The notes beneath the pieces are model-generated. The model saw only the letters and a program-made list of their open reading frames with translations, was not told where the DNA came from and did not search any database. From contig JAHFML010000003.1 in the NCBI GenBank assembly GCA_023269085.1, positions 52,863-116,862 of the forward strand: a stretch of 64,000 bases of DNA. Reading direction: 5' to 3'. Position 1 is the stretch's first letter, and every line of letters starts with the position of its first letter. This stretch comes from a bacterium. Its GTDB lineage: Bacteria; Patescibacteriota; Minisyncoccia; Phycocordibacterales; Phycocordibacteraceae. Below, one piece after another: positions 11,042-61,680 of this stretch. A program made the translations under genes and the position numbers.

Positions 11042-11668
11042 TCAAGTAATCATGACAAGAACCGTCACAATCATGAAGAGCCCGTTTTCGAGGGAAAACC
11101 CAGACACCTCAAGTGCTTGAAGCGGGCTAGTTGTCCGGTTGCACAACTTGTGCGGCAGTTCTTCGACAAGCGTGACATTTATCGTCGCGCCGAGGATCCA
11201 CATACCCCACCCGAGCAGCATCCACTCGGTCGGTAAATCGTGTGGCTCGAGATATTGCTTGAGCTGCGGATAGAACGACAAGATGTCGGCTGCAATGCCG
11301 CCCAAAAACAAGATGCGGGCGTTCCACTTTCCTGTTATACCGCCTATCGTAGCCCAAAGGCTGATAGTTACGACTATGCCAAATAGCACGACACTTTCGG
11401 CATGACCGAGGTTGAAAGTAGAGCCTCTTCGGCAGATCGCCAAGATGAGCATTGAGGCGTTCCCAATAAGGAACCCGAATGGCATGCGCCAGCCAGCAAA
11501 TCCTTGCGTATGCGATGCATAAAGTAACATCGCTGAAAGGATGAGCCAGAGGCTGTATGAAGCGGTATTTACTTCTGACGGGTGTTGCCATCCGCCGACG
11601 CCGAGGGGTATATATGCCCCGGCGCTAAGGAGCAGGACAAGCCAGCTCCAATAATCTTTCCGAGACAT
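11042..11668 (-). CDS. Hypothetical polytopic membrane protein
   Basis: ~7 predicted hydrophobic helices; start at MSRKDYWSW. Confidence 0.55.
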   Translation of the reverse strand: MSRKDYWSWLVLLLSAGAYIPLGVGGWQHPSEVNTASYSLWLILSAMLLYASHTQGFAGWRMPFGFLIGNASMLILAICRRGSTFNLGHAESVVLFGIVVTISLWATIGGITGKWNARILFLGGIAADILSFYPQLKQYLEPHDLPTEWMLLGWGMWILGATINVTLVEELPHKLCNRTTSPLQALEVSGFSLENGLFMIVTVLVMIT

Positions 11669-17654: not shown

Positions 17655-17754
17655 TTTGTGCATATCTGGTTTGCACGAGTGCGCTGGGGGCTTGCTTTTT
17701 TGCATAATGTGTGCTAGTCTAAAACCTAGATAGAACCTTGCCATTACGCACGTT

Positions 17755-17813
17755 CGCCACAGCAGAAAGGGGCTTTCGCCAGTCGGCAGGCTCGGCCGTT
17801 TTCTGCTGTGGCG
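17755..17813 (+). promoter_or_regulatory. Conserved 5' leader stem-loop of DGR-1 target gene (paralogue at 54000..54058)
   Basis: cgccacagcagaaa...tttctgctgtggcg 14-bp stem with an inner hairpin; ~85% identical to the copy upstream of the second DGR target, with compensatory changes in the inner stem. Confidence 0.7.
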
Positions 17814-17887
17814 AACCGAATATGTCGGTGCGTCGTACAGCACGCGACAATATCAGCAATGATAGTCGCACAAAAGGAGATCGCATC

Positions 17888-22740: not shown

Positions 22741-23783
22741 TCCCCTTTGAAATGCAATTGCTCTAACATGGAGCAATATGCAAAAGCGCCAAGAATTCAA
22801 ACATTTACAACAGAAGGACAGAGACCGTATTCATGATCTGTATCTGTTCGGCCACAGCCAGAAAGGCATCGCGGAAGTACTCGGGGTGAGCCCGGGCACC
22901 ATCTCGCGAGAACTGAAGCGGTATGACAAACGCACCTGGCGGTACTCCGCCACGAGAGCGCAAGAGGACGCAGAGCTGAAGCGTCTGCACAGCAAGCGCC
23001 CCGGCATGAAGATTGCCGAGAACCACGCACTGCGCCAGCAGGTCATTCAAGAACTAAAGAAACTCCGTTCCCCAGACGAGATTGCGGGACGCATGAAGAA
23101 AGAGGGAGTGTCACCACGAGTCGGCAAGAACGCTATATACAAATGGCTGTACAGCGAGGACGGCAAAGCATACTGTCGGTATCTCTGCACCAAACGAACC
23201 AAACCAAGAGGGCGTCGGTACCTTGAGGCACGTGTCCTCATTCCCGATCGAAAGTCCCACAGAACAAGGCCGGATTCCCCAGGGCTCATCCATACCGAAG
23301 GAGACTTGTTCGTATCACCACAAAAGTCAGGATCAACTGTATGTGGCCTTCTCGTGGTGGAAAAAGAGAGCAAGCTATACTCGGGTGCGCTCATTTCAAA
23401 CAAGAGCGCCGCGTTCATCGTACCCGCAATGCGACGAGCAACCCGAGCCGTCAGTGCAGACACCTGTACGCTCGACAATGGCATTGAGAACATCTGCCAT
23501 CGAAACTTCGACGTGGACACCTACTTCTGCGACCCAGGGACACCGACCCAGAAGCCGGATGTTGAGGGGTCAATCGGGCTCGTACGTCGCTGGTTCCTGC
23601 CAAAAGGAACTGACCTGTCCACCGTCTCCAATGAGACATACCAGTCGCAACTGCACCTGCTGAATCACAAGTATCGGAGGTCGCTCGGATACCGGAGTGC
23701 GTATGAAGACGCCCTTGAGCGAGGTATCATCAAACGAGTGCCGAGGGTTTCATTACAAATGGCGATTGCATTTCGCTAGGGAA
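22741..23783. mobile_element. IS30-family insertion sequence (~1.04 kb)
   Basis: Imperfect terminal IRs (CCCTTTGAAATGCAATTGC ... GCGATTGCATTTCGCTAGGG) bracket a single transposase ORF. Confidence 0.75.
22778..23779 (+). CDS. IS30-family DDE transposase
   Basis: N-terminal HTH (HSQKGIAEVLGVSPGTISRELKR), C-terminal DDE-type catalytic domain; ORF ends inside the right IR. Confidence 0.85.
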   Translation: MQKRQEFKHLQQKDRDRIHDLYLFGHSQKGIAEVLGVSPGTISRELKRYDKRTWRYSATRAQEDAELKRLHSKRPGMKIAENHALRQQVIQELKKLRSPDEIAGRMKKEGVSPRVGKNAIYKWLYSEDGKAYCRYLCTKRTKPRGRRYLEARVLIPDRKSHRTRPDSPGLIHTEGDLFVSPQKSGSTVCGLLVVEKESKLYSGALISNKSAAFIVPAMRRATRAVSADTCTLDNGIENICHRNFDVDTYFCDPGTPTQKPDVEGSIGLVRRWFLPKGTDLSTVSNETYQSQLHLLNHKYRRSLGYRSAYEDALERGIIKRVPRVSLQMAIAFR

Positions 23784-23898: not shown

Positions 23899-24462
23899 AT
23901 GGTTTTGAACTTGAAAGAACGAGCGGCTGTTTATATCGACGGGAGCAACACTTACAACAAATTAAAATCTCTTGGGTTGCCGGAAAGTACGAAGAGGTTC
24001 GATTTCTCCGCGTTTGTGTCGCATATCGTCGGGGAACGATCTCTGGTCTCTCAAAGGTACTATGTCGGGATTGTTCGTAATCATGACACTACCGAAAAGA
24101 GCGAGACGCTTGTGCGCAAGCAACAGCAATTCTTGGAAACGCTACGGCTATCAGGATTTGAAATCAAACCGGGGAAAATCATGTATGACGGTGGTCGCAT
24201 ACGAGAAAAAGGTGTCGATGTAAAATTGGCGATTGATTTGGTCATTGGTGCGGCGGAAGATTTATACGACATCGCGATTGTCATCAGCTCAGATACTGAT
24301 CTTATACCGGCAATAAAATATGTTTTGAACGGAAAGAACAAGAAGGTCGAGTATGTTGGATTCGCTGGCGCGCCCTCACTCGGGATGAGTAAGGAGTGCA
24401 GTACGCAACGCCTTTTCTCGAAAGAGGATCTTTCCCCGTTTCAATTCCTTAAAGAAAATTAA
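23899..24462 (+). CDS. NYN-domain (LabA-like) putative RNase
   Basis: AVYIDGSN...VDVKLAIDLV...ISSDTDLIPAI NYN/PIN-like motifs. Confidence 0.75.
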   Translation: MVLNLKERAAVYIDGSNTYNKLKSLGLPESTKRFDFSAFVSHIVGERSLVSQRYYVGIVRNHDTTEKSETLVRKQQQFLETLRLSGFEIKPGKIMYDGGRIREKGVDVKLAIDLVIGAAEDLYDIAIVISSDTDLIPAIKYVLNGKNKKVEYVGFAGAPSLGMSKECSTQRLFSKEDLSPFQFLKEN

Positions 24463-25299
24463 ATGTTAGCAGTATCGAAATTCAGAACGACCGTGTGGCG
24501 CTACTACCGAGAGCAGGGGCGGCATGATTTGCCGTGGAGGAAGACGCAGGATTTGTATCACATTCTCGTTTCTGAAGTGATGTTGCAACAGACGCAGGTA
24601 CATCGGGTACTCCCGATGTATGCCGAGTTCACGAAGCGTTTCCCGACGGCGCGGCGGCTTGCCGCCGCGCCGCTCTCTGAAGTGCTCAAAGTGTGGCAAG
24701 GGCTCGGCTACAATCGCCGCGCGAAAATGTTGCACCAAGCGGCGAAGGAAATTGAAGCACGCCCGACAAGGTTCGACCTTGAGGATTCGGATGTAAGGTC
24801 GAACCTTGTCGGGCGGCTCGAGGCGTTGCCCGGGGTGGGGCACTACACCGCGCGAGCCGTCGCGGCCTTCGCCTACAACGAAGACACCATCGTCATTGAG
24901 ACGAATATTCGCACGGCGGTTATCCATCACTTTTTTGCCGAGAGAACCGACAAAGTCTCGGATGCGGAAATTACTGAAGTACTCGCGCGCGCCCTGCCGC
25001 GAGGCGGGGCGCGCGACTGGTACAGCGCGCTCATGGACTATGGCGCGCACTTAAAGCAGATCGGCATCTCGCACAATGCCCGCACACAGGCGTCGGCGAA
25101 GCAGTCGAAGTTCGCGGGTTCGCTCAGGCAAGCGCGCGGGGCTCTCTTGCGAGAGCTCGCGCGCGGCGCGCAGAGCGCGCCGCATCTCCGCAACCTTTTG
25201 GGCGTCGACCGGCGCGACCAGGTGAACGCCGCTCTCAACGCGCTCCTCACCGAAGGCTTTCTGCAAAAAGAAAAAGGGAAGTATCGCCTTGCCGGCTAA
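24463..25299 (+). CDS. HhH-GPD DNA glycosylase (MutY/Nth-like) with C-terminal winged-helix-like domain
   Basis: LVSEVMLQQTQVHRVLPMY...LPGVGHYTARAVAAFAY HhH-GPD; no obvious 4Fe-4S Cys cluster. Confidence 0.7.
   Translation: MLAVSKFRTTVWRYYREQGRHDLPWRKTQDLYHILVSEVMLQQTQVHRVLPMYAEFTKRFPTARRLAAAPLSEVLKVWQGLGYNRRAKMLHQAAKEIEARPTRFDLEDSDVRSNLVGRLEALPGVGHYTARAVAAFAYNEDTIVIETNIRTAVIHHFFAERTDKVSDAEITEVLARALPRGGARDWYSALMDYGAHLKQIGISHNARTQASAKQSKFAGSLRQARGALLRELARGAQSAPHLRNLLGVDRRDQVNAALNALLTEGFLQKEKGKYRLAG
24762..24813 (+). repeat. In-frame perfect palindrome (19-bp arms, 14-nt spacer) inside the glycosylase gene
   Basis: cccgacaaggttcgacctt gaggattcggatgt aaggtcgaaccttgtcggg. Confidence 0.9.
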
Positions 25300-26477
25300 C
25301 GGAAATCTTTGATACACAAGGTTGCGATGGTGCCCGCGATCATGACGAATCCGCCCGTGAGCGCGAAGAAAAGCGGATAATTATAGTGACTGCAAAATAG
25401 GATTAGCGTGCCTGCGAGCGGTGCGAGTATGTTCGAGAGTGGCCACACGCCGCGGAAGACGCTCACTGACACGATGTCTTGTTCGGAGACACGGCGGAAG
25501 AAGTGCCCCTCGGTCATACTCTCGATCAAGGCCGCGCCGACGCGAGTTGCGAGCAGAACGGTGATGATAACGAGCACTGATGAGTGCGCGGTGATGAGGC
25601 CGATCGACGAGAGCGCCGCCCCTGCAATGATGAAGCCCGCGAGCATCATCTCCTTGTCGCCGAGGACACGATCGGCGACCCATCCGGCGGGATATTCGAT
25701 AAGGACATAGGGCAGAAGCATGAGCGAGAAGACCCAGCCGAGCTCGCTCCACGGGAGGCCGAGCACGCCGTGGAGGTAGACCGGCACATAGAGCGGCGCC
25801 CACATATAGAACATATACAAAATAAGATGGCCGATAGTGACTGCCGCGAGGTCGCGATTGTGCACGAGGTGGTGGAGCGTGTCGTGCACATGAGAGGGAT
25901 TGGGCGCCGTTCCATGGGGCAATTTGCGGAGCGAGAAGATGACGATGAAAGGCACGAGCACTGCGGCGGCGGTGAAGAAGACGAACGAGTAGCTCTCGGT
26001 CGACGCGAGCAGGGTGCCGATAAGAAGCGGCGCGACAAGGGAGCCGAGGTTGCCGCCGGTGAGGAACAATGTCCGTGCGCGGCCAGTCGTGCTCTCGCCG
26101 TCTATCGTCGCTTCGAGGAGAAGGTCGAGGCCGTAGTAGAGAATAGGCTGGAGTGATATGACGAGCACGACAAAAATCGCGCTCGCGATCGTGCTCGGCG
26201 CCGCCGCGACCGCGAAGAGCAGGATCATCGTGGTGAAGACTGAGGCGAGTGTGAGCCACTGAGCGCCCGTGCGCGCGACGATGCGCGGCAAGAAGAAGAA
26301 GAGTGCGAGCGCGGCCGCCGCGCCGAGCGCGATCGCGAAGCCGATGAGTGCCGCGGGGATGAAGGTGAGGAGATACGAGATGAGCGTGTAGCTCACCAAG
26401 GTTGATGAGACCGCGATAAAAAAGTTCCCGAGAAATAGCGTCGTCCGTGCGGGCATGGTTATCGTAGAGTTTAGCAT
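25296..26477 (-). CDS. MFS transporter
   Basis: 12 TM; start uncertain (26477 or 26456). Confidence 0.8.
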   Translation of the reverse strand: MLNSTITMPARTTLFLGNFFIAVSSTLVSYTLISYLLTFIPAALIGFAIALGAAAALALFFFLPRIVARTGAQWLTLASVFTTMILLFAVAAAPSTIASAIFVVLVISLQPILYYGLDLLLEATIDGESTTGRARTLFLTGGNLGSLVAPLLIGTLLASTESYSFVFFTAAAVLVPFIVIFSLRKLPHGTAPNPSHVHDTLHHLVHNRDLAAVTIGHLILYMFYMWAPLYVPVYLHGVLGLPWSELGWVFSLMLLPYVLIEYPAGWVADRVLGDKEMMLAGFIIAGAALSSIGLITAHSSVLVIITVLLATRVGAALIESMTEGHFFRRVSEQDIVSVSVFRGVWPLSNILAPLAGTLILFCSHYNYPLFFALTGGFVMIAGTIATLCIKDFR

Positions 26478-51913: not shown

Positions 51914-53956
<2,043 letters not shown>

Positions 53957-53999: not shown

Positions 54000-54058
54000 C
54001 GCCACAGCAGAAAGGGGCTTCCGCCAACCGGCGGACTAGGCCGTTTTCTGCTGTGGCG
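54000..54058 (+). promoter_or_regulatory. Conserved 5' leader stem-loop of DGR-2 target gene
   Basis: cgccacagcagaaa...tttctgctgtggcg; paralogue of 17755..17813. Confidence 0.7.
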
Positions 54059-60616: not shown

Positions 60617-61680
60617 GGTCGTGTCTTCTTATACCGCGTCGCACGGCCTTGGCCGAGACGCATGATGAGCAAGTGGCTTACGAGACGAAGAAGCGTTTTT
60701 TTGATGGTCGGTACGGCGACAGATCCGTGAAGGCGATTGTGTATCTCGCGGACGGATAGCTCGCTCCCGTCCGCGAAGAGCTCGTAGACGACGATCTGCT
60801 TAGGCGAGAGGAGCATCTCGGGGTGTTTCTCGCCGAGGAGCTTCTCAGCACGCGTCGACTGCGCGAGGAGCGCATCAAGGAAGAACTCGACCCACGGGGT
60901 TACGTCCTCGTCATCGGTCTTGTGACGCTTCTGCGTCTGCCGCAGAGCGAGATAGTAGTCGGTCGTGCGTTCCTCGATAATCTCGTCGAGCGACACGTAG
61001 GGAATGTACGCGTATCCGGCACGCAGGAGGAGCAGGTTTGTGAGCGCGCGCGACAGGCGGCCGTTGCCATCGTGGAATGGGTGGATAGCGAGGAACTCAA
61101 AAATAAAGTTCGCGATCACGAGCAGAGGATGCGTATCAACTTGCGCATCGCGTTCGTTGAACCACGCGACCGCGTCTCCCATTTCCTTTTTCACGAGATA
61201 CGGAGGGGTAGGGCGAAAGAGCACGATCTCTTCACTATCACCGCCACGCATAACGACGACATTGTCGGTCGTCTTGTACGCGCCCTTATGAAGGGCGTCT
61301 TTCTGTGCGAAGTGCAAGAGAATCTCATGGAATTGCAAGGTACGATTCTCGGAGAGTGGCAGATCGGCGAAATGGTCAAATATCCTGCCGAGCAGGTCAG
61401 CATAGCCAGCGACCTCTTCTTCGTCGCGGCCGACCGGCGGTTTCGACTTCAATCCGCGCAGAAGCCGTGCGACTTCGTCATCGCTCAAGTTCGAACCTTC
61501 GATACGCGTCGAGGATCCGGTCGAGGTGATGATGACGGACGTACGCAGACGATCCAAGATTTTCTGGCTCATTTCGGCCGTGCCGCGCCAACGCCCCTTG
61601 AACTCGTCGATGGCCGCGATGCGAGTTACTATATCGTTGGTCAGCTTTATCCTCTTGTTGAATCGATCGTTCATGATCAT
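60613..61680 (-). CDS. Fic-family protein (Fic_N-Fic-wHTH architecture)
   Basis: Canonical active-site motif HPFHDGNGRLSRAL; N-terminal IDEFKGRW Fic_N-like segment; C-terminal wHTH-like region. Confidence 0.85.
   Translation of the reverse strand: MIMNDRFNKRIKLTNDIVTRIAAIDEFKGRWRGTAEMSQKILDRLRTSVIITSTGSSTRIEGSNLSDDEVARLLRGLKSKPPVGRDEEEVAGYADLLGRIFDHFADLPLSENRTLQFHEILLHFAQKDALHKGAYKTTDNVVVMRGGDSEEIVLFRPTPPYLVKKEMGDAVAWFNERDAQVDTHPLLVIANFIFEFLAIHPFHDGNGRLSRALTNLLLLRAGYAYIPYVSLDEIIEERTTDYYLALRQTQKRHKTDDEDVTPWVEFFLDALLAQSTRAEKLLGEKHPEMLLSPKQIVVYELFADGSELSVREIHNRLHGSVAVPTIKKTLLRLVSHLLIMRLGQGRATRYKKTRP

Follow-up and report, generated by a model that had tools for sequence, protein, structure and literature searches.

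A probable intragenic copy of a REP/REPIN-like palindromic doublet, widespread in Patescibacteria, in a MutYX-type adenine glycosylase gene

Nearly all studies of repetitive extragenic palindromic (REP) sequences and of the systems they form with REP-associated tyrosine transposases (RAYTs), such as REP-TnpA(REP) of E. coli and the paired REPs (REPINs) of Pseudomonas, have dealt with Proteobacteria and with extragenic copies. Alongside REP-RAYT systems, intragenic REPs are already known, as are the Rickettsia palindromic elements (RPEs; 100-150 bp), the classic case of in-frame insertion. In IS200/IS605 elements and palindrome-associated transposable elements (PATEs), a Y1 HUH gene is bounded by subterminal hairpins, hairpin-only derivatives occur and target-site duplications are lacking, as is expected of Y1/IS200-type elements in general. 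Di Nocera et al. 2013 (PMC3733652) described REPs in frame in genes, often dimeric and coding for 20-30 residues, with a GTAG or CGTC tetranucleotide at one unit end as the criterion for a REP; many of these intragenic REPs lie in replication/repair genes and some at about the same site in orthologues. Here, we describe a perfect palindrome in the gene for a MutYX-type adenine glycosylase on a 64-kb stretch of contig JAHFML010000003.1 from a Minisyncoccia bacterium (the whole stretch is hereafter called the window). Judging from its sequence and relatives, this palindrome is probably an intragenic copy of a REP/REPIN-like doublet that is widespread in Patescibacteria, the candidate phyla radiation (CPR).

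The palindrome comprises two 21-nt arms (24760-24780 and 24795-24815) that are 100% complementary and flank a 14-nt spacer, 56 nt in total. An initial annotation of the window had placed a perfect, in-frame palindrome with 19-bp arms in a MutY/Nth-like open reading frame (ORF); its perfection, frame, 14-nt spacer and position directly before the LPGVG motif all hold, but each arm is 2 bp longer. The left arm, CGCCCGACAAGGTTCGACCTT, consists of an outer stem, CGCCCGAC (24760-24767), and a core unit, AAGGT-TCG-ACCTT (24768-24780), a REP-like 5-3-5 mini-palindrome read as R-F-D-L. The right arm, AAGGTCGAACCTTGTCGGGCG, consists of the inverted partner, AAGGT-CGA-ACCTT (24795-24807), read as R-S-N-L, and an outer stem, GTCGGGCG (24808-24815); no strand is assigned to the arms, the core units or the spacer. 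The centre triplet CGA of the right core unit is complementary to TCG of the left. The spacer, GAGGATTCGGATGT (24781-24794), is typical of the repeat family described below and is identical at 12/14 positions to that of a MutYX orthologue (L208), at 11/14 to that of a copy in a LOG-family gene (L075) and at 10/14 to that of a copy in a DnaG gene (L025). The palindrome lies in frame in the ORF at 24463-25299 (+), codes for the 19 residues R100-R118 (RPTRFDLEDSDVRSNLVGR) and ends 3 residues before LPGVG, the hairpin of the HhH-GPD motif (L122-P-G-V-G126; 24826-24840, +), which is directly downstream and outside the element.

An 86-nt stretch containing the palindrome is predicted to fold as RNA at -49.3 kcal/mol, compared with -25.3 +/- 3.3 for shuffled sequences (z = -7.3), and a search of Rfam with 24300-25400 at E-values up to 10 returned sub-threshold noise only. 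The arm, with up to 3 mismatches, has no further site in the window; shuffles give 0.01 expected matches, and 0/100 shuffles reach 2. The core unit, with up to 2 mismatches, forms no other doublet there and has a lone near-match, AAGTTCGAACCTT at 61487, a single unit with 1 mismatch that lies inside an ORF and has no partner. A likeness of the palindrome to the tRNA T-arm (GGTTCGA) was dropped because the centre triplet varies freely among relatives, and a DNA uptake sequence was set aside as well, since most units are paired and their density, 1 doublet per 64 kb, is far too low.

Further copies of the element are found in other genomes. One genome per species from 185,579 species was scanned for AAGGTYSRACCTT-N(2-26)-AAGGTYSRACCTT with the centre restricted to YSR (8 triplets), and at least 120 loci matched, almost all labelled as Patescibacteria lineages, against an estimated chance expectation of ~0.3; two of the 120 listed loci are the MutYX gene. 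The lineages among the matches listed include Kaiser-, Lloyd-, Zambryski-, Taylor-, Nomura-, Moran-, Uhr-, Vogel-, Yonath- and Levybacteria. The 120 listed loci, 779 kb in all, contain 316 units, which form 138 doublets and 40 singles, and the arms are perfectly complementary in 125 of the 138 doublets although 8 centre triplets were allowed. Several copies can occur in one genome, as in a Lloydbacteria metagenome-assembled genome (MAG) that matches in 6 loci on 5 contigs, and locus L093 holds 3 doublets within 8 kb. The basic unit is (AC)AAGGT-NNN-ACCTT(GT), 13-17 nt long, and an inverted pair 0-26 nt apart makes a doublet capable of folding as a single long hairpin. Sequence logos of the unit flanks show only a C at -1 and a G at +1, with a TAC/GTA extension being common, and the GTAG/CGTC tetranucleotide is absent at unit ends from the flank logos of the listed copies. 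Complementarity beyond the core is bimodal among the dispersed copies, at either 0 or ~7-8 bp with a maximum of 16 bp, and the sequences involved are locus-specific. Direct repeats at element boundaries are no commoner than at random positions, unlike what a miniature inverted-repeat element of the DDE type, with terminal inverted repeats and target-site duplications, would show. Among 2.9 million viral contigs scanned in the same way, there was 1 match (L212, IMG/VR), in which four direct units (GAAGGTnnnACCTTCC) stand 7 nt apart at 11324-11405 of a high-GC phage-like contig; being a direct array that looks like an operator or iteron array, it was rejected as a Patescibacteria element and is considered unrelated.

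Copies of the family lie in genes of many kinds. Open frames of at least 600 nt hold 81 of the 138 doublets (59%), compared with 71% of random 40-nt windows from the same loci, indicating that the element is not attracted to coding DNA but is merely not excluded from it. All three phases are used (RxxL 45, xGxTL 29, KVxP 15), on both strands, and copies also lie between genes; depending on the phase, the one DNA motif is read as RFDL/RSNL/RSDL, QGSTL/KGRTL or KVRP/KVEP. Matches to 140 Pfam families, mostly housekeeping, were obtained for 83 host ORFs, and the host genes include those for class I aminoacyl-tRNA synthetases, GatA/GatB, SMC, LigA, TsaD, MiaA, NusA, Mur ligases and UvrA. The copies in the DnaG and LOG-family genes have spacers resembling that of the window.

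Four of the host frames match Pfam Y1_Tnp, and inspection showed these to be genes for proteins of ~200 aa adjoining a palindrome. The proteins encoded beside palindromes score 39-46 bits on PF01797 (Y1_Tnp; cutoff 23), and their best NCBIfam match is NF047646 (REP_Tyr_transpos; 1e-12 to 1e-14). They have no PDB sequence match, and candidate HUH (NHFHL) and Tyr (YIHxNP) motifs were assigned by eye. A Y1 gene was detected by tblastn in 12 of the 120 listed palindrome loci and in none of 88 control loci (Fisher p = 0.0015). Doublets or single units are positioned 9-91 nt from the gene start and/or stop in at least 8 of the 12 Y1-carrying loci; at L049, the two flanking doublets have reverse-complementary spacers. 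The copies flanking Y1 genes show only 2-3 bp of complementarity beyond the core. The RAYT-like protein family comprises at least 4980 clusters; records of Patescibacteria, Microgenomates, Gracilibacteria and WS5 call its members "transposase" or "IS200-like". In a prospective test, two homologues were picked by protein similarity alone, and both proved to be flanked by repeats: L211 carries ACAAGGTTCAACCTTGT/ACAAGGTTGAACCTTGT on both sides of the Y1 gene, and L209 (50% identity) is flanked by a variant AGGGTTGAACCCT/AGGGTTCAACCCT doublet, indicating that the repeat varies together with the protein lineage. REP units also occur inside the RAYT-like ORF itself, ~135-215 nt after its start, as single units in L049, L055, L080, L088 and L095 and as doublets in L091 and L117; the similar position in several genomes could reflect in-frame insertion or a self-regulatory site.

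The palindrome in the window thus belongs to a family of inverted doublets that resides in diverse host genes, is polymorphic at its insertion sites and is associated with a Y1 gene. Its REPIN-like identity is argued from the palindromic unit, the inverted doublets, the Y1 gene flanked by units and the lack of target-site duplication. These features, together with doublets acting as a longer hairpin, are shared with the REP/REPIN-RAYT systems, whose flanked gene is likewise IS200-like Y1 (HUH); dispersal in several copies per genome, seen here as up to 6 loci per MAG, may be shared as well. The unit differs from known REPs in being shorter (13-17 nt with a 3-nt centre), in lacking GTAG/CGTC and in having a free centre triplet that co-varies between the two units. 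Moreover, ~59% of the sampled copies lie in long ORFs rather than being extragenic, many copies have locus-specific outer stems, and the core recurs in many Patescibacteria lineages, whereas a REP is usually restricted to one species or genus. At 200-226 aa, the Y1 proteins are longer than RAYTs, and they score under the NCBIfam RAYT cutoff.

In-frame residence within genes for known proteins is shared with intragenic REPs and RPEs. The intragenic REPs described in PMC3733652 are GTAG/CGTC REPs of Proteobacteria and Opitutus, of which the intragenic ones are a minority, whereas family, phylum and sequence differ here. The RPEs, compared by description, share in-frame insertion and are set apart from the present element by its length of 30-56 nt, its different core and its occurrence in Patescibacteria. 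Unlike IS200/IS605 elements, compared by their general features and the Pfam match, the Y1 genes here are bounded by the same symmetric doublet instead of distinct left and right ends, no tnpB is present, and the dispersed copies (30-56 nt) are far below the size of an insertion sequence. The coding palindromes of Nematomorpha mitochondria (PMC6649704) are also perfect inverted repeats in coding sequence with both arms translated; they reach up to 284 bp, are mitochondrial and involve no dispersed shared-core family or transposase.

A different reading of the family as a whole makes AAGGT-NNN-ACCTT the dimer-binding site of a host protein, namely the Y1 protein, in a domesticated system that would serve in regulation or in organising the chromosome. 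The ten fixed core bases conserved over many Patescibacteria lineages, the dyad symmetry of every unit, the large size of the RAYT-like family and the operator-like direct array of a similar motif in the phage-like contig would all suit such a site, and Bertels and Rainey have reportedly argued that REP/RAYT systems are vertically inherited and possibly beneficial. However, the density of the element is low and patchy: the 64 kb of the window contain 1 doublet, the 279 kb of control loci that were checked for RAYT genes contain none, and elsewhere several lie within 8-20 kb. In addition, its copies decay at orthologous sites, and its placement in essential ORFs looks tolerated rather than designed. 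Based on these sequence patterns, a domesticated binding site appears improbable.

The insertion at the mutYX site was compared among orthologues. Between the motifs GYNRRA and LPGVG, the window product has 39 aa, its nearest element-free orthologues have 28 aa (the commonest length in the close clade, with xRKIxTV), and distant MutY/MutYX relatives almost always have 32 aa with a GGKxP motif; overall, loops that lack the element measure 28 or 32 aa and those that carry it 29-49 aa. A metagenome scan for relatives returned mostly distant MutY/MutYX sequences (43-61% identity), which fixed the ancestral loop at 32 aa, and only one element-bearing locus, L126, with a single unit. The loop had initially been described as ~8 residues longer than usual, in good agreement with 39 versus 32 aa and with alignment gaps of 7 relative to 8uuc (MutYX) and 8 relative to E. 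coli MutY. Among 119 close homologues, two arm-peptides are present in 25, a single unit or remnant in 26 and neither in 68; P0001 is the nearest of the orthologues as a protein, and P0112 has the loop that most resembles that of the window. The in-frame palindromic insertion proposed at the outset is supported by this alignment as well as by the copies in other genomes: the segment is missing from the distant relatives and from more than half of the close orthologues (68/119), and the relatives that carry it are palindromic wherever their DNA was compared.

The DNA was compared for nine element-bearing MutYX orthologues from independent assemblies of different studies, and each contains the palindrome. 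The 13-bp core is paired in 115 of 117 cells, and the centre triplets vary among the orthologues yet remain complementary (TCG/CGA, CGA/TCG, TCA/TGA, CAG/CTG). The seven positions outside the core differ in every orthologue and are again complementary, with 54 of 63 cells paired compared with 37.5% for random bases and with 2-5 pair types at each of the positions -1 to -7; the outer stem is CGCCCGAC in the window and CCGCAAC, CTGAAAC, GAGTATGGG or ACACACC elsewhere. In the 25 homologues with two arm-peptides, the pairs are RFDL...RSNL, RSNL...RFDL, RSDL...RSDL or RFNL...RLNL; L126 and L207 retain single units at the site. The element DNA of the window and that of L208 are 90% identical, whereas third codon positions in the remaining gene are 38-41% identical, pointing to a constraint on the DNA and not on the peptide. 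In the window, the right outer stem (GTC GGG CGG, V-G-R) looks native, being common to orthologues and forming the start of the helix that precedes the HhH motif, while the left outer stem (CGC CCG AC, R-P-T) is unique, which suggests that the left flank of the palindrome was rewritten from the right flank. In another MutYX orthologue, P0028, the inter-arm spacer contains a tandem KTSRS x3 (TRFDLKNKTSRSKTSRSKTSRSNLEV), suggesting slippage within the element.

A mechanism consistent with these observations can be proposed. The Y1 enzyme would recognise hairpins on single-stranded DNA and mobilise them without target-site duplication, and intragenic copies would persist only where the reading frame is kept and a surface loop is tolerant. 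Here, the presumed tolerant loop is the one preceding the helix-hairpin-helix of MutYX, where the element encodes 19 residues and leaves the ORF intact. As the element or a remnant of it is found at this site in many orthologues, the site would be either an old insertion or a hot spot for insertion. Arm-to-arm templating through hairpin-primed synthesis or template-switch correction, while the DNA is replicated or the element is copied, would probably account for the perfect complementarity of the arms, which extends over the outer 8 bp specific to this locus. Alternatively, genome-specific longer variants of the element may have hit one hot spot repeatedly by re-insertion, or selection may have favoured a stable hairpin; selection on the protein is an unlikely cause of the complementarity. 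More tentatively, the family could represent an ancient phylum-wide REPIN-RAYT-like system whose hairpins lie mostly in essential genes and remodel loops at hot spots, with arms maintained by self-templating that extends outward into host codons, a broader proposal that we regard as rather unlikely to hold in full.

Several points weigh against the identification of the palindrome as a REPIN-like mobile doublet. The RAYT-like proteins score 46.7-52.3 bits on NF047646, under its cutoff of 80, and the units are without the GTAG/CGTC tags of classical REPs. The link between palindrome and transposase is a genomic association, from which we infer transposition; the window holds one doublet and no Y1/RAYT-like gene detectable by tblastn, so that any mobility in this genome is presumptive. 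About 43% of the MutYX orthologues have the element or a remnant at one site and in one reading frame. A shared site combined with complementary outer stems is not predicted by simple insertion followed by neutral decay, and this pattern requires an added process, such as templating or hot-spot re-insertion, or selection for the hairpin. When the loop was masked, neighbour joining of 120 orthologues intermingled element-bearing with empty sequences, in a star-like tree that is too poorly resolved for counting gains and losses.

The same pattern raises the possibility that the hairpin is kept by selection at mutYX, either as an mRNA structure (an RNase III site, a translational pause or an attenuator) or as a DNA cruciform. 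The number of orthologues with a hairpin at one site, the pairing retained through differing triplets and outer stems, the very stable predicted fold and a G-U wobble on the sense strand in L001 would favour such selection. Nevertheless, L002 has a C-A mismatch on the sense strand, Rfam offers no match, and 68 of the 119 close orthologues do without the element. Furthermore, the same core and even the same type of spacer recur in over 100 unrelated genes, whatever the frame and the strand, as well as between genes and flanking a transposase gene, a distribution that makes hairpin selection at this one gene quite improbable as an explanation of the element. Selection at the protein level, in which the RFDL...RSNL loop would serve MutYX function and the palindromy would be incidental, fares considerably worse. 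The loop adjoins the DNA-binding HhH motif, its peptide recurs in orthologues and short helices are predicted for it; yet the codons are fixed in the DNA (always AGG and CTT), the identity of the element far exceeds that of third codon positions, L003 swaps RFDL and RSNL between the arms so that pairing is kept and peptide order is not, other frames are used in other genes and many orthologues lack the loop, leaving this explanation very improbable. A chance palindrome or an assembly artefact, for which nothing specific speaks apart from the probable origin of the sequence in a MAG, can hardly be entertained given the 0.01 matches expected in shuffles, the recurrence of the same element at the same site in independent assemblies and the intact ORF.

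In the literature searched, no paper was found that contains these motifs or joins RAYT/REPIN to Patescibacteria, and no description of this family was found. Its unusual traits are the core shared across many lineages, the mostly intragenic location of the sampled copies, the absence of GTAG/CGTC, the co-varying centre triplets and the locus-specific outer stems. An architecture similar to REP/REPIN-RAYT is now seen across the CPR, in genomes with very little intergenic space, and most of the sampled copies lie in housekeeping genes for DNA repair, replication and translation. The family may therefore provide a DNA-level explanation for some lineage-specific loop insertions in these proteins, with RFDL/RSNL, QGSTL/KGRTL and KVRP/KVEP as footprints of one mobile palindrome in three frames, and annotators and structure predictors would do well to treat such segments as element-derived. 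The complementary, locus-specific outer stems raise the question of how palindromes are maintained or extended in coding DNA; self-templating, if true, would be an undescribed way of palindrome maintenance and a steady source of lineage-specific insertions in streamlined genomes.

The host gene (24463-25299, +) encodes a 278-aa clusterless MutY-like (MutYX-type) HhH-GPD adenine glycosylase with a C-terminal winged-helix-like domain. Its product matches Pfam HhH-GPD at 5.6e-18, above the cutoff, and TIGR01084 (mutY) is the closest curated model at 2e-47, though under the equivalog cutoff, as a divergent clade would be expected to score. In the PDB, it is matched best by 8uuc_A (MutYX; 1e-49, residues 21-252), published as a clusterless adenine glycosylase with a distinct C-terminal domain (bioRxiv 10.1101/2025.01.03.631205). 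The sequence of the window product lacks Cys where it aligns with the cluster loop. An AlphaFold2 (AF2) model built with 32 homologues has a mean predicted local distance difference test (pLDDT) score of 90. In this model, the insertion takes the form of short helical turns lying between helix 84-99 and the HhH helices and is predicted less confidently (block 101-110, pLDDT 78). With its intact ORF, conserved motifs and confidently predicted fold, the gene looks functional. Its close homologues (60-73% identity) were found in MAGs of Kaiserbacteria, Paceibacteria and Minisyncoccia, which places the window in the Patescibacteria. The MutYX clade has a Glu, shared with 8uuc, in an invariant ETNIRT motif, at the position that we take to be that of the catalytic Asp of E. 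coli MutY (D138, in DGNV). An NYN-domain gene lies upstream of mutYX, and a major facilitator superfamily (MFS) transporter gene lies downstream on the opposite strand and is kept in orthologous loci. Two genes upstream of mutYX, a 333-aa ORF (22778-23779) appears IS30-like by eye and is unrelated to the palindrome-linked Y1 family.

The LigA genes offer a second view of insertion and turnover. The LigA gene of L008 carries two doublets, and the site before SVAYYCxNxKC occurs in four states among the 120 closest homologues: empty (P0131, P0134, P0161, P0234), with an intact doublet (KRSDLKNSxRSDL), with a decayed doublet (KRSGLKNSKRPDL, KRQDLKNSKRSCL) or with a different insert. Orthologues ~70-74% identical span all four states, and one 91%-identical pair carries different inserts. 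From these alignments, the LigA site appears to be like the MutYX site, a tolerant loop and hot spot with rapid turnover. Recurrent insert peptides (LLHPSGGTFREKN, NFSAFLHPSGG, LQGEGQGG) were seen at LigA hot spots in P0127, P0130, P0132, P0156, P0185 and others, suggesting that housekeeping proteins of Patescibacteria contain translated copies of further palindromic repeat families.

It is plausible, as the initial annotation implied, that the window has other families of in-frame palindromes. The NAD-dependent DNA ligase ORF (51914-53953) contains an in-frame palindrome, CTCGCGGGTGGACAC-cta-GTGTCCACCCGCGAG, at 52241-52285 (~residue 110), a position that is an insertion hot spot of Patescibacteria LigA orthologues. 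Its stems, GCGGGTG...CACCCGC, resemble the GCGGGTGTCCAACACCCGC hairpins flanking the RAYT-like gene in L008, and this palindrome may represent a second family of REPs. At 17752-17816 and 54000-54058, the window has a third palindrome family, CGCCACAGCAGAAAGGGGC ... GCCGTTTTCTGCTGTGGCG. A 292-aa frame over the first of two duplicated segments has no Pfam match; the third palindrome family marks the start of this ~2.5-kb segmental duplication, whose copies (17.75-20.25 versus 54.0-56.4 kb) are 90-94% identical and lie ~36.2 kb apart.

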